From the IMG/VR virus record IMGVR_UViG_2713896791_000006: a DNA stretch of 4,480 bases; one strand, given 5' to 3'. Both the position numbers and the translations under genes were made by a program. The notes beneath the pieces were generated by a model, which was not told where the DNA came from, did not search any database, and worked only from the letters and a program-made list of their open reading frames with translations. Source of the DNA: a virus. Its lineage: Duplodnaviria; Heunggongvirae; Uroviricota; Caudoviricetes. Below are positions 896 to 4,480 of the stretch, piece after piece; position 1 is the stretch's first letter; each line of letters begins with the position of its first letter.

Positions 896-1372
896 TTAAG
901 TTCCTGTCTTGGTGATGTTCTGGCTTTTCCGTTTTGATTCTTGATTTTTCAGATAGTTAGCTACCTTCATTTCCATTGCGGCAATGTAGGCGCGAACGTC
1001 ATGATCAACCCAACTAGGCTCCGTAGCATTTCCAGATAAGATGAAAGCCACAATTGCTCTTTTTTCATCAGAGGCGGCTTGATAAAGGCTGTTTATGTCT
1101 AAAAGTTCACTTTTTGTATCTGAAGTGGATGGGGTTGGTATGGGGTATTCGTTAAGCCCCCAATGCTCTGGACCAACCACATCAGAAAAGAAACGCCATA
1201 GTTCTGGAAGTTTGTCTTTACTTATCGAACCTTTCTTAATCCAGTCATGGATTGATGGTGGTTGGACTTTGAAATGACGTGCGATTTCCGCCTTTGATTT
1301 GACGGCTCCTGATGCAATTTTTTTGTTAATGGCCTGCTCTATCGCTCGGCCTAAGTCTTTACCACTAAGCAT
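896..1372 (-). CDS. racR: CI-like helix-turn-helix repressor of a Rac-type prophage (RacR-like, 158 aa)
   Basis: 158-aa ORF with an N-terminal HTH-like segment (KSKAEIARHFKVQPPSIHDWIKKG). ATG at 1372-1370 with AGGAG (RC of 1384-1388) upstream; stop TAA at 898-896. Divergent from a Cro-like gene and followed by ydaT/ydaU/ydaV-like genes, matching the Rac prophage gene order as I recall it; the 158-aa length matches RacR. Confidence 0.8.
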   Translation of the reverse strand: MLSGKDLGRAIEQAINKKIASGAVKSKAEIARHFKVQPPSIHDWIKKGSISKDKLPELWRFFSDVVGPEHWGLNEYPIPTPSTSDTKSELLDINSLYQAASDEKRAIVAFILSGNATEPSWVDHDVRAYIAAMEMKVANYLKNQESKRKSQNITKTGT

Positions 1373-1820: not shown

Positions 1821-2229
1821 GCACATCCGCATGGCGATGAATGCCTGGGCATACCCTGATGGTGAGAAAGTTCCTGCAGCTGAAATAGCCCGGACTTATT
1901 TCGAACTGGGGATGACGTTCCCTGAACTGTACGACGACAGCCATCCGGAAGCCCTGGCCCGTAATACCCAGAAAATTTTCCGTTGGCTGGATAAAGACAC
2001 CCCTGATGCTGTTGAAAAAATGCAGGCTCTGTTACCGGCGATCGAAAAGGCGATGCCGCCTTTGCTGGTGGCCCGTATGCGCAGCCACAGTTCTGAATAT
2101 TACCGTGAGATCGTCGAACGGAGGGATCGGCTGGTGAAGGATGTCGATGATTTTGTTGCGTCAGCGGTTGTTTTGTATGACCAGATGAATCGCGGCGGCC
2201 CGGCAGGGAATGCTGTGGTGATGCACTAA
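1804..2229 (+). CDS. ydaT: YdaT-like protein (140 aa; reported CII-like / toxic when derepressed)
   Basis: ATG at 1804 with AAGAGG (1788-1793) upstream. Overlaps the 3' end of ydaS by 17 nt in a different frame. Length and position match YdaT in the Rac gene order. Confidence 0.75.
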   Translation: MKIKHEHIRMAMNAWAYPDGEKVPAAEIARTYFELGMTFPELYDDSHPEALARNTQKIFRWLDKDTPDAVEKMQALLPAIEKAMPPLLVARMRSHSSEYYREIVERRDRLVKDVDDFVASAVVLYDQMNRGGPAGNAVVMH

Positions 2230-2251
2230 AAGCACGGTGTTCGGGGGTTTT

Positions 2252-3214
2252 ATGAGCAGCAAGCTTCATGGTCTTGTCTGGGAAGGGTGCGCCTTCACCG
2301 GCATGATCTTATCCAGGGTGGCGGTTATGGCCCGTCTTGCAGACTACAGCAATGACGAGGGCGTGTCATGGCCTGCCATTGAAACTATCCGGCGTCAGAT
2401 CGGTGCAAGAAGTGAATCCACAGTGAAATCGGCTATTGCAGAACTGGCGAAAGAGGGCTGGCTGACGAAGGAAGAGCGTAAGGTCGGTGGGCGTAATGTA
2501 AGCAATATCTATCGGCTTAATGTGGAAAAACTCGAAGCAGCTGCGGCGGCGGCGCGTGAGTCATATAAACCGAAAAGAAAAATTAGCCCGGCAAAAAATG
2601 ACCCGTTAACAGTTGACCCGTCAAATATTGACCCCTCAACGGTTGACCCGTCAAATTTTGATGGATCAACTGTTGATAAAAAACTGCCGATTAGGGGGGC
2701 GATGATTGACCCCGATCCGTCAGTATTAAAACCTGATCCGTCAGATAAAAGATCTTCTTGTCCGGACGCTTCGCAACCGGACCCGCAGACGGCTGAACAG
2801 GATTTTTTAACCCGACACCCTGACGCGGTTGTGTTCAGTGCGAAAAAACGCCAGTGGGGAAGTCAGGAAGATTTGGTGTGCGCACAGTGGATCTGGGGAC
2901 GAATCGTGAGTCTTTACGAGCAGGCGGCCAGCGATGATGGCGAGATCACTAGACCGAAAGAACCCAACTGGACAGCATGGGCCAATGACGTTCGCACAAT
3001 GCGGATGCTGGATGGCAGAACTCACAGACAAATTTGTGAAATGTTTGGGCGTCTCCAGCGGGATTCGTTCTGGGTAAAAAACATCATGAGTCCGGCAAAA
3101 CTCCGGGAAAAATGGGATGAACTGGTTATCCGCCTGGGGCGTTCGCCTGCGCAGCGTTGCGTGAATCACATTTCTGAACCGGACACTGAAATACCGCCGG
3201 GATTCAGGGGGTGA
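2252..3214 (+). CDS. ydaU: Replication initiator-like protein (YdaU-like): N-terminal winged-HTH, pentapeptide-repeat linker, DnaT-like C-terminal tail
   Basis: ATG at 2252 preceded by GGGGG (2243-2247); the track start at 2237 is GTG. N-terminal segment RLADYSNDEGVSWPAIETIRRQIGARSESTVKSAIAELAKEGWL resembles a winged-helix DNA-binding domain. The C-terminus ...VNHISEPDTEIPPGFRG closely resembles the C-terminus of E. coli DnaT as I recall it (...VNTVSEPDSQIPPGFRG). Sits immediately upstream of the DnaC-like gene. Confidence 0.8.
   Translation: MSSKLHGLVWEGCAFTGMILSRVAVMARLADYSNDEGVSWPAIETIRRQIGARSESTVKSAIAELAKEGWLTKEERKVGGRNVSNIYRLNVEKLEAAAAAARESYKPKRKISPAKNDPLTVDPSNIDPSTVDPSNFDGSTVDKKLPIRGAMIDPDPSVLKPDPSDKRSSCPDASQPDPQTAEQDFLTRHPDAVVFSAKKRQWGSQEDLVCAQWIWGRIVSLYEQAASDDGEITRPKEPNWTAWANDVRTMRMLDGRTHRQICEMFGRLQRDSFWVKNIMSPAKLREKWDELVIRLGRSPAQRCVNHISEPDTEIPPGFRG
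2598..2687. repeat. Tandem 15-bp iteron-like repeats (core TTGAC-CC-GTCAA) inside ydaU
   Basis: Units at 2598, 2613, 2628, 2643, 2658 and 2673: atgacccgttaacag, ttgacccgtcaaata, ttgacccctcaacgg, ttgacccgtcaaatt, ttgatggatcaactg, ttgataaaaaactgc. Each good unit has the inverted arms TTGAC/GTCAA. They encode pentapeptide repeats VDPSN/IDPST. Confidence 0.55.
2706..2754. repeat. Second repeat pair (GATCCGTCAG followed by A/T-rich tract) with clustered GATC sites
   Basis: GATCCGTCAG at 2714-2723 and 2736-2745, each followed by tattaaaa / ataaaag. GATC at 2664, 2714, 2736 and 2751, i.e. four sites in about 90 bp. Confidence 0.4.
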
Positions 3215-3220
3215 CGTGTC

Positions 3221-3961
3221 ATGAAAAACATTGCGGCAGTTGGGGTTCTTGAACGTATTCGCAGACTTGCACCACAGGGGGCGGTTCCACCGTACCGGAC
3301 GGTGGAGGAGTGGCGGGAATGGCAACTTGCTGAAGGACGAAAACGCAGCGAGGAGATTAACCGCCTGAATCATCAGGTGCGGGTTGAAAAAATCCTGAAC
3401 CGTGCGGGCATCCAGCCGCTTCACAGGAAGTGCTCATTCGGGAACTACCGGGTGCAGAACGACGGTCAGCGCCATGCTCTGAGCCAGGCGAAATCCATTG
3501 CCGATGAATTGATGACCGGATGTACAAACTTCGTGTTCAGCGGTAAACCTGGTACCGGTAAAAATCACCTGGCAGCAGCGATTGGCAATCGGCTGATGGC
3601 GAAGGGGAGAAGCGTGATTATCGTCACCGTGTCCGATGTCATGAGCGTGTTGCATGACGGCTACGACAACGGCCAGTCCGGGGAAAAATTTTTACAGGAG
3701 CTTTGTGGAGTTGACCTTCTGGTCCTTGATGAAATTGGCATGCAGCGGGATACGCGCAACGAGCAGGTCACGCTGAACCAGATAGTCGACCGCAGAACGG
3801 CTTCGATGCGTAGTGTCGGAATGCTGACGAACCTGAATCACGCAGCGATGAGCACACTCCTCGGAGATCGGGTGATGGACCGTATGACCATGAATGGTGG
3901 TCGTTGGGTGAATTTTAACTGGGAGAGCTGGCGGTCAAACGTTGGACGTCAGGGTATGTGA
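3221..3961 (+). CDS. ydaV: DnaC-like AAA+ helicase loader (YdaV-like, 246 aa)
   Basis: ATG at 3221 with AGGGGG (3206-3211) upstream. DnaC-type Walker A FSGKPGTGKNHLAAAIG (DNA 3542-3565 covers GKPGTGKN) and Walker B DLLVLDEIG. Similar along its whole length to E. coli DnaC as I recall it (e.g. CSFxNYRV, MLTNxN, VMDRM, NW[ED]S[WY]RS). Confidence 0.85.
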   Translation: MKNIAAVGVLERIRRLAPQGAVPPYRTVEEWREWQLAEGRKRSEEINRLNHQVRVEKILNRAGIQPLHRKCSFGNYRVQNDGQRHALSQAKSIADELMTGCTNFVFSGKPGTGKNHLAAAIGNRLMAKGRSVIIVTVSDVMSVLHDGYDNGQSGEKFLQELCGVDLLVLDEIGMQRDTRNEQVTLNQIVDRRTASMRSVGMLTNLNHAAMSTLLGDRVMDRMTMNGGRWVNFNWESWRSNVGRQGM

Positions 3962-3985: not shown

Positions 3986-4480
3986 GATGGAAACTGTATT
4001 GCATGCACTGAAAGCGATGGGAAAAGCCAATTCTGTTGAACTGGCGGCGCGGCTTGATATCAGCCGTGAAGAAGTTCTTAACGAACTGTGGGAACTCAAA
4101 AAAAATGGCGTTGTTGATAAAACGGGTCACACCTGGTTTCTGGCTGTCGAAGGTGANNNNNNNNNNNNNNNNNNNNNNNNNNNNNNNNNNNNNNNNNNNN
4201 NNNNNNTCAAAAAAAATGGCGTTGTTGATAAAACGGGTCACACCTGGTTTCTGGCTGTCGAAGGTGAAGCCGGGGTAACCGAAGGGCAGGCACTACAACC
4301 TGAAGCGCCGGATGTGGTAACCGAAGAGGTCGCTCCAAAAGTTACCGCAGACATGATGGTTGAGTTTATCGGTCAGGATGGTGCTAAAACGTGTGAGGAA
4401 CTGGCGGGTAAGTTCGGCGTCAGTACTCGCAAGGTTGCTTCCACGCTGGCGGTGGTAACCGCAACGGGGCGGCTGGCACG
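3986..4480 (+). CDS. Hypothetical protein with two winged-helix-like segments; partial (runs off the window) and interrupted by an artefactual gap
   Basis: ATG at 3986 with GAGGTAAA (3973-3980) upstream: [57 protein letters not shown]... The frame resumes after the gap at 4209 ([28 protein letters not shown]...[35 protein letters not shown]...) and is open to 4480. Could be a YdaW-like gene, but I cannot confirm this. Confidence 0.5.
4096..4267. repeat. 61-bp exact direct duplication (4096-4156 = 4207-4267) across the N gap; probable mis-joined overlapping contig ends
   Basis: Both copies read tcaaaaaaaatggcgttgttgataaaacgggtcacacctggtttctggctgtcgaaggtga. Removing the gap and one copy restores a continuous in-frame ORF. 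Confidence 0.85.
4157..4206. other. Assembly/scaffold gap (50 N) flanked by duplicated contig ends
   Basis: Run of exactly 50 N; the 61 bp before and after are identical. Confidence 0.95.

Follow-up and report, generated by a model that had tools for sequence, protein, structure and literature searches.

Introduction

The replication origin of bacteriophage lambda is built into a coding sequence: iterons, which are 19-bp imperfect inverted repeats, and an A/T-rich tract lie in the central part of gene O, and the number of iterons differs between relatives, from four in lambda to six in Stx phages, which adds 13 amino acids (aa) (PMC7466680). For the Rac prophage, an active origin named oriJ is reported (PMC3945230). 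Here, we analyzed a 4,480-bp stretch of Caudoviricetes DNA (IMG/VR record IMGVR_UViG_2713896791_000006, hereafter the window), which, judging by its list of open reading frames (ORFs) and its Pfam matches, is a Rac-like lambdoid prophage's module for immunity and replication. Positions 2557–2760 of the window, inside the linker-coding part of the prophage's own initiator gene, probably form the replication origin of this prophage, a reading drawn from sequence comparison.

Related arrangements are found outside the lambdoid phages. Iteron plasmids encode winged-helix initiators (pPS10 RepA, R6K pi, F RepE, and P1 RepA) that occupy sets of short repeats arranged in arrays and bring in DnaB via a loader. 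Their iterons are direct repeats of 17–22 bp, placed ~22 bp (about two helical turns) apart and outside the rep gene, and the Rep protein has two winged-helix domains and binds as a monomer. The system described here differs from these plasmids, as it combines one winged helix-turn-helix (wHTH) domain and a predicted disordered linker with contiguous 15-bp palindromic units inside the gene. In the Bacillus phage SPP1 G38P/oriL system and the DnaD-like replisome organizers, the initiator's own gene contains the origin repeats, and a helicase loader takes over from the initiator. The initiator of the window resembles them in the weak DnaD_N and DnaD-like PHROG matches of its C-terminal domain, whereas the host lineage, the repeat sequences, and the loader type are different.

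A 15-bp iteron array inside the initiator gene

The initiator-like gene occupies positions 2252–3214 of the plus strand (320 aa; ATG at 2252, with an alternative GTG start at 2237; ORF list). Within it, at 2597–2686, lies an iteron array of six in-frame 15-bp units, defined with Tandem Repeats Finder, repeat families, the codon register, a shuffle test, and conservation among homologues. Tandem Repeats Finder itself gave a period-15 array of ~5 copies at 2578–2661 and a period-30 reading at 2587–2676. In codon register, the units start at 2597 (AATGACCCGTTAACA), 2612 (GTTGACCCGTCAAAT), 2627 (ATTGACCCCTCAACG), 2642 (GTTGACCCGTCAAAT again), 2657 (TTTGATGGATCAACT), and 2672 (GTTGATAAAAAACTG). The palindromic core TTGA-N4-TCAA is present in four of the six; the first unit reads ATGA...TTAA, and the last one (2672) is degenerate. 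Along the array, the orientation of the half-sites flips every 7–8 bp.

When both strands of the window were searched, the core TGA-N4-TCAA occurred nine times, eight of these occurrences belonging to the four palindromic units. Shuffled windows were expected to contain 0.89 occurrences, and none of 200 shuffles reached nine. The array motif was found nowhere else in 13 kb of the prophage. An earlier note on this DNA, made from the letters alone, had described four to six tandem 15-bp units with a dyad-symmetric core and a second repeat pair behind them; both were recovered, as six units at 2597–2686, four of them strict palindromes, and as the element GATCCGTCAG at 2714 and 2735.

As one unit is exactly five codons, the gain or loss of units keeps the reading frame. 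The array encodes the peptide NDPLT VDPSN IDPST VDPSN FDGST VDKKL, and the pentapeptide-repeat linker that the same note had deduced from the period is borne out by the in-frame units and by the predicted disorder of the segment.

The array is conserved as DNA

We retrieved 80 homologous loci, each species being represented by one genome, with conserved peptides from the initiator's N-terminal domain (N-domain) as the only probe. Genomic loci were used; an earlier protein search with the N-domain gave mostly truncated entries. These loci show 53–74% aa identity to the N-domain of the window and come from Erwinia, Edwardsiella, Morganella, Yersinia, Providencia, Proteus, Rahnella, Pantoea, and other Enterobacterales. 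In 78 of the 80, a 15-bp array of three to nine units directly follows the N-domain, in the same frame throughout. The copy number, suspected earlier to vary between prophages, thus does so across genera, but it is nearly invariant within the common E. coli type; a diverged E. coli lineage has one 15-bp unit fewer.

The encoded peptide varies by unit (DPS, EGS, DPP, EGL, NPS, NPP, DAS, DGS, DGL, and DTS), while the DNA half-sites are conserved among the homologous loci. Moreover, the unit TTGACCCCTCAA and its exact reverse complement, TTGAGGGGTCAA, coexist in single arrays. Since half-sites are conserved under a variable peptide and in reverse-complement units, selection on the protein cannot account for this pattern. 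The sister motif was matched 201 times within the array zone vs twice outside it (387 kb).

A low-complexity pentapeptide linker (D/E-P/A/G-S rich) could also have been generated by slippage and be selected at the protein level if at all, for example as an acidic flexible tether, with no role of the DNA in cis. The predicted disorder of the segment, the period of exactly five codons, and the variable copy number all fit such a linker, and acidic linkers can function, as does that of DnaT, which binds PriB (PMC13377028). We ran a codon test defined purely on peptide-level positions. In conserved columns of the N-domain, four-fold degenerate third positions are near-random (0.07–0.6 bits), which means that synonymous sites are saturated among the loci. 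In the repeat zone, on the other hand, the Ser located two residues past D/E is encoded by TCA in 325 of 371 cases (88%, vs 24% for Ser elsewhere in the genes), and the Lys that follows Ser is encoded by AAA in 250 of 252 (99%, vs 61% elsewhere). Within the 15-bp unit, positions 6–9 are variable and positions 3–5 and 10–14 near-invariant, side by side. Fixed and variable third positions adjoining within one unit argue against the peptide linker and also disfavor a simple recent transfer of the whole segment.

The peptide is thus free to change while the palindromic core is kept, reverse-complement units included. The codon test essentially excludes a linker maintained purely at the peptide level, an explanation that we consider extremely improbable. 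The array is under nucleotide-level selection. Conservation of the peptide only had been named beforehand as an observation that would speak against an origin; the opposite was found, with conserved DNA and a variable peptide. Because the repeats are conserved as DNA, not as protein, across many genera, we read the array as the putative binding sites of the initiator.

Predicted domains of the initiator and its DnaT-like tail

The RefSeq label of the identical gene is "helix-turn-helix domain-containing protein," and the sole above-threshold Pfam match is HTH_36 at aa 25–71 (27.9 bits). PHROG 391, "replication initiation O-like," covers the full-length initiator (E=2e-115), the name "O-like" being a functional label only. 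Whereas lambda O has a Phage_rep_O N-domain, the protein of the window is of the HTH_36 type with no Phage_rep_O match in Pfam.

An AlphaFold2 model, built on an alignment of 34 sequences, predicts an N-terminal winged-helix DNA-binding domain at aa 1–105 (2252–2566, plus strand) with the topology H-H-H-H-beta-beta-H and a predicted local distance difference test (pLDDT) score of 81–93. By Foldseek, the solved folds closest to this domain belong to wHTH regulators of the MarR/ArsR/PadR type, which form dimers and bind palindromes. An inter-domain linker is predicted to be disordered at aa 113–175 (2588–2776, plus strand; pLDDT <50), and these residues coincide exactly with the part encoded by the repeats and by the GATC elements that follow them. 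The remainder, at 2777–3214 on the plus strand, is an exchangeable C-terminal domain (C-domain) that ends in a DnaT-like tail, as indicated by a C-domain swap in a locus of E. coli 29A20CPO013 (L085), by PHROG matches, and by the match to the DnaT tail. The PHROG families matched by the C-domain are "O-like" and "DnaD-like helicase loader," and its Pfam DnaD_N match is weak (17.4 bits, under the 27-bit cut-off).

The final ~19 residues of the initiator (RCVNHISEPDTEIPPGFRG, 3155–3211; region 3149–3211, aa 300–320) match the very C-terminal end of the host primosomal protein DnaT, RDVNTVSEPDSQIPPGFRG, almost residue for residue, and the matches found by a PDB sequence search are confined to this tail (2ru8, 6aep, and 9zbt). 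The DnaT-like tail also terminates K-12 YdaU and the L085 initiator, whose N-domains are unrelated, and a weaker version, QIPAGFRG, terminates SfIV gp41. According to PMC13377028, it is not known how DnaB/DnaC are recruited by DnaT; the shared tail is therefore a candidate recruitment motif, and it may be a more surprising lead than the repeats.

A DnaC-like gene follows the initiator, paralleling the host dnaT-dnaC operon. This ydaV-like gene (3221–3961, plus strand, 6 bp 3' of the initiator gene) encodes a DnaC/IstB-like AAA+ helicase loader that matches Pfam IstB_IS21 (1.5e-19), NCBIfam NF009043 (500 bits), DnaC NF005931 (E=1.8e-92), and PHROG 50, "DnaC-like helicase loader."

Unit variants follow the N-domain

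The combination of N-domain and array is joined to at least three types of C-domain and is found beside differing immunity modules, RacR/YdaS/YdaT here and cI/Cro-type modules in SfIV and vB_EcoM-689R6. The unit variant follows the N-domain subtype, and neither the C-domain nor the immunity region. Initiators with TV(S/K)xAI and RKxGGRN in the recognition helix and wing have xTTGA..TCAA(A/C) units, those with ST(V/I)RTA and RRxGNRN have TCTGAC..TCAAAA units, and those with STVITA and GQRN have TCTGAA..TTCAGAA units. Temperate phages that are functional, SfIV and SfII among them, carry the sister version.

In megablast, genes that have a different N half are matched from query position 511 onward, which is position 2747 of the window, placing a recombination joint to the exchangeable C-module at ~2747, just past the GATC pair. 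In L085, the C-domain of the window (from ~2747) stands behind a different N-domain at 86–92% DNA identity. The middle of the L085 gene (L085 1332–1502) holds five units with a 23-bp period and the core GGTCAAAATG, followed by a 12-bp A/T-rich triplet, ACAGAGAATACA; these repeats are another candidate in-gene origin, of a third type.

Homologues of the initiator were also seen on circular records. The 15.2-kb "plasmid" OR902858.1 carries a homologue of the TCTGAC class and is an excised circular e14 element (icd fragment, mcrA, pin/hin, and tfaE); being simply excised e14, it was dropped as evidence of autonomous replication. The circular 15,977-bp record NZ_CP148542.1 contains only a lambdoid early region (repressor, cro, initiator, DnaC-like gene, Q, and lysis genes), with an initiator whose N-domain is 100% identical and with no other replication gene listed. 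This initiator has two compensating homopolymer frameshifts inside a GATC element, which resemble read errors. The record could be a natural lambda-dv-like replicon driven by the candidate origin or an assembly artefact, and is unusable as proof.

GATC elements and low-stability DNA around the array

Behind the array, the second repeat pair reads CCCGATCCGTCAG and CCTGATCCGTCAG at 2711–2723 and 2732–2744, with a spacing of 21 bp. The first GATCCGTCAG element is fused to an iteron-like TTGACCCC (2706–2723, GATC at 2714), and the second (2733–2744, GATC at 2735) contains TGATCCGTCAG. As TGATCCGTCAG fits the core TGA-N4-TCA, both elements are candidate extra binding sites, and they may be two further initiator sites that each hold a Dam site. 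GATC occurs at 2664, 2714, 2735, and 2751, so that 4 of the 17 sites of the window fall within 91 bp (2664–2754), in agreement with the cluster of four sites in ~90 bp noticed earlier; the total for the window is as expected.

The GATC pair is shared by the family. Among 79 full-length homologues, nearly all have two GATC sites spaced 18, 21, or 24 bp after the array, and GATCC[GA]TCA is what both sites read in about two thirds of them. The pair occurs with either unit class and with every type of C-domain, and the linker zone contains 11.6 GATC sites per kb, compared with 2.9 for the remainder of the genes. A GATC cluster beside candidate initiator sites recalls oriC, with its 13-mers and Dam-SeqA sequestration. 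The M 13-mer of oriC has the consensus GATCTnTTnTTTT, 10 of whose 13 positions are matched by GATCTTTTATCTG on the bottom strand of the window. This resemblance was rejected as a family feature, the AGATCT site being present in the subclass of the window only and not in TCTGAC-type loci.

The least stable DNA of the gene flanks the array. On its left, an A-rich stretch with degenerate 15-bp units (2557–2596; repeat family D1 reaches 2578) contains the least stable 30 bp of the gene (dG30 of −33.2 vs a gene mean of −41.9). On its right, a low-stability, A/T-richer stretch (TATTAAAACC...GATAAAAGATCTTCTT, 2724–2760; dG30 of −34.2, GC of 0.325) includes the fourth GATC at 2751 and is a candidate unwinding region. 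The minimum GC over 40 bp, 0.325, is reached at 2560–2599 and at 2720–2759, and the three 30-bp stretches with the lowest stability in the gene are found within 2557–2753, at 2.4–2.7 standard deviations (SD) from the gene mean. Low-stability DNA is thus present beside the array, where the earlier note had placed an A/T-rich tract, but the "A-rich sequence" is a short run only (GATAAAAAACTG), and at ~67% A+T the element is short and weak compared with that of lambda, so the unwinding region is no firmer than a candidate.

Other signals were sought around the array. No internal promoter or terminator was found in 2200–3300, and the integration host factor (IHF) consensus WATCARNNNNTTR has no match within the window. 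A perfect DnaA box, TTTTCCACA, at 2521–2529 on the minus strand is missing there in the other 78 homologues and was discarded as a chance match; with no conserved DnaA box found, the locus does not have the makings of a DnaA-dependent origin.

A 33-nt inverted repeat spans the array, and as a single strand (2605–2677) the array can form a ~73-nt hairpin centred at ~2641, with 33-nt arms that are 79% complementary. Such a hairpin, and not duplex binding sites, might be what acts, either in the mRNA (controlling translation pausing or decay between the domains) or on unwound DNA (signaling priming or loading). The 171-nt segment 2590–2760 folds at −50.1 kcal/mol (z=−4.25), and arrays of both unit classes fold better than shuffles in ~90% of loci, so that hairpin or cruciform potential is common to the two classes. 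However, self-complementarity follows automatically from alternating inverted half-sites, and the number (3–9) and order of units change freely, so that one defined stem is not preserved. In addition, the conserved bases are the half-sites themselves and not compensatory pairs, and no Rfam family matched. We regard the hairpin as a very unlikely basis for the conservation.

Comparison with lambda and K-12 Rac

The array occupies nt 345–435 of the 963-nt initiator gene, and the annotated iterons of lambda occupy nt 349–433 of the 900-nt O gene. In both systems, the initiator gene has dyad-symmetric iterons at its middle, which encode a linker between domains, the N-terminal part sets the specificity, and the C-terminal part can be exchanged; as among lambda and Stx phages, the iteron copy number differs between relatives. 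The lambdoid in-gene pattern that the earlier note had recognized is thus supported by comparative evidence, namely the DNA conservation, the joint travel of array and N-domain, the position, and the disordered linker.

The differences lie in the parts. Lambda iterons are 18–19 bp long and 20–24 bp apart, whereas the units of the window are 15 bp long, contiguous, and exactly five codons each. The A/T-rich region of lambda lies 3.3 SD from the mean, compared with 2.4–2.7 SD and ~67% A+T here, and the conserved GATC pair after the array is a further difference from the lambda origin. The partner of the initiator is P in lambda and an IstB/DnaC-like loader here. From these comparisons, the putative origin is lambda-like in anatomy, yet its initiator and loader fall outside the lambda O/P protein families.

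The conserved DNA could also act in cis without being an origin, either as an array bound by the initiator or by another factor to control copy number or incompatibility, to autoregulate, or to exclude related phages, or as a conserved linker for modular recombination between phages, with the true start or unwinding site elsewhere. The recombination joint at ~2747 directly follows the GATC pair, a strong A/T-rich unwinding element is lacking, and cloned lambda iterons are described in PMC3349717 as inhibitory to related phages. Nevertheless, the position, architecture, and modular behavior match those of the lambda origin exactly, there are no other iteron copies near promoters and no promoter-like site in the region, and recombination alone leaves the position-specific conservation inside each 15-bp unit unexplained. 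Such a non-origin element seems to us rather improbable, less so than the hairpin.

The gene order of K-12 Rac is the same as here: racR, a ydaS-like gene, a ydaT-like gene, the initiator, and the DnaC-like ydaV. The name ydaU, considered for the gene of the window, was rejected, as the gene is no orthologue of K-12 ydaU. BLASTP aligns the last 19 aa only, with the shared end ...IPPGFRG, and the YdaU N-domain is the DUF1376 of its RefSeq name and not HTH_36. With the alignment limited to these residues, the gene is a positional analogue of ydaU and not its orthologue. K-12 ydaU has mid-gene repeats of its own, CAGATGTTCAAACA, in four direct copies plus inverted ones (L001 4470–4660; NC_000913.3 ~1421470–1421660), followed by an A-rich AATAAAGATACAGATAAAGATCTAAAAACAGATCC holding two GATC sites. 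These repeats differ from the 15-bp units of the window and plausibly mark the position of the classical oriJ; mapped oriJ coordinates were not found in the searchable literature.

Genomic context of the locus

E. coli 2011C-4251 carries identical DNA (100%), flanked by exonuclease/dicB genes and hokD/rusA/antiterminator genes. About 28% of complete E. coli genomes (1516 of 5426) have the region, O157:H7 and other Shiga toxin-producing E. coli included, and most E. coli copies are of equal length and show at least 99% identity.

Upstream of the initiator gene, the window contains racR (896–1372, minus strand; ORF list and Pfam), a ydaS-like gene (1497–1820, Pfam YdaS_toxin match), and a ydaT-like gene (1804–2229, Pfam YdaT_toxin match). 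A perfect 23-bp inverted repeat, TTGTCAATAGGCTATGCCTAATA, brackets racR (781–803 and 1424–1446), and palindromes of the TAGGCnnnGCCTAA type also lie on either side of it (regions 759–808 and 1401–1468). Together with the inverted repeat, these palindromes probably serve the RacR/YdaS switch as its operator sets.

Runs of 50 N at 578–627 and 4157–4206 are assembly gaps. The first stands in for 38 bp that the identical complete genome contains. On either side of the second lies one copy of a 60-bp overlap (4097–4156 = 4207–4266), and, as this overlap is single-copy in the complete genome, the repeat around it is an artefact.

Discussion

In the mechanism that we propose for the candidate origin, dimers of the initiator's N-terminal winged helix would bind the contiguous 15-bp units, which form a lattice of alternately oriented TTGA/TCAA half-sites. 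Dimers would probably also occupy the two downstream GATC-containing iteron-like sites, and the resulting nucleoprotein complex would destabilize the neighboring low-stability DNA at 2557–2596, at 2724–2760, or at both. The C-terminal domain with its DnaT-like tail would then recruit host DnaB via the adjacent DnaC-like loader. More speculatively, the conserved GATC pair may couple firing to Dam methylation and SeqA.

Several points weigh against the origin. The A/T-rich element is short and, at ~67% A+T, far weaker than that of lambda. The half-site centers are ~7.5 bp apart in units without spacers, unlike in lambda; such spacing is unusual for MarR-like dimers, and, as the half-sites alternate every 7–8 bp, neighboring dimers would face nearly opposite sides of the helix. 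The co-variation of units and N-domains comes from two large clades and a small number of singletons, and so represents few independent events. The linker doubles as a recombination joint, and exchange between phages could explain some of the DNA conservation. Finally, the prophage may be defective, and the origin might hence be inactive in this strain.

The candidate origin could go further and represent a distinct, undescribed class of enterobacterial phage origin, although we hold this to be doubtful. In such a class, half-sites would form a spacer-less lattice in five-codon units, an initiator with a single winged helix would polymerize instead of assembling a lambda-type O-some, a pair of Dam sites would gate firing via methylation state or SeqA, and a DnaT-derived tail would recruit DnaC-DnaB. 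If this were true, it would suggest the DnaT tail as the element, so far missing, by which the restart primosome recruits DnaB/DnaC.

Literature searches on the repeat sequences, ydaU iterons, and the SfII/SfIV origins found no description of these repeats. That the protein is "O-like" is known already from database labels; the repeats, as a probable lambda-like in-gene origin, were uncharacterized. An origin at this position is what a specialist would expect, and the accepted picture of lambdoid replication is unchanged. The added value lies in the clear signature of DNA over peptide conservation, in the family-wide picture, and in the five-codon design, by which iteron copy number can drift without frameshifts.

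Sister versions of the system occur in the inducible Shigella serotype-converting phages SfII and SfIV and across Enterobacterales. Their naturally co-varying pairs of initiator and iterons are material for studying DNA recognition by winged helices. Knowledge of the origin would explain mosaic joints in replication modules, and the specificity between initiator and origin would help to predict which "cryptic" prophages still replicate in situ, with its bearing on the dosage and mobilization of their cargo genes.

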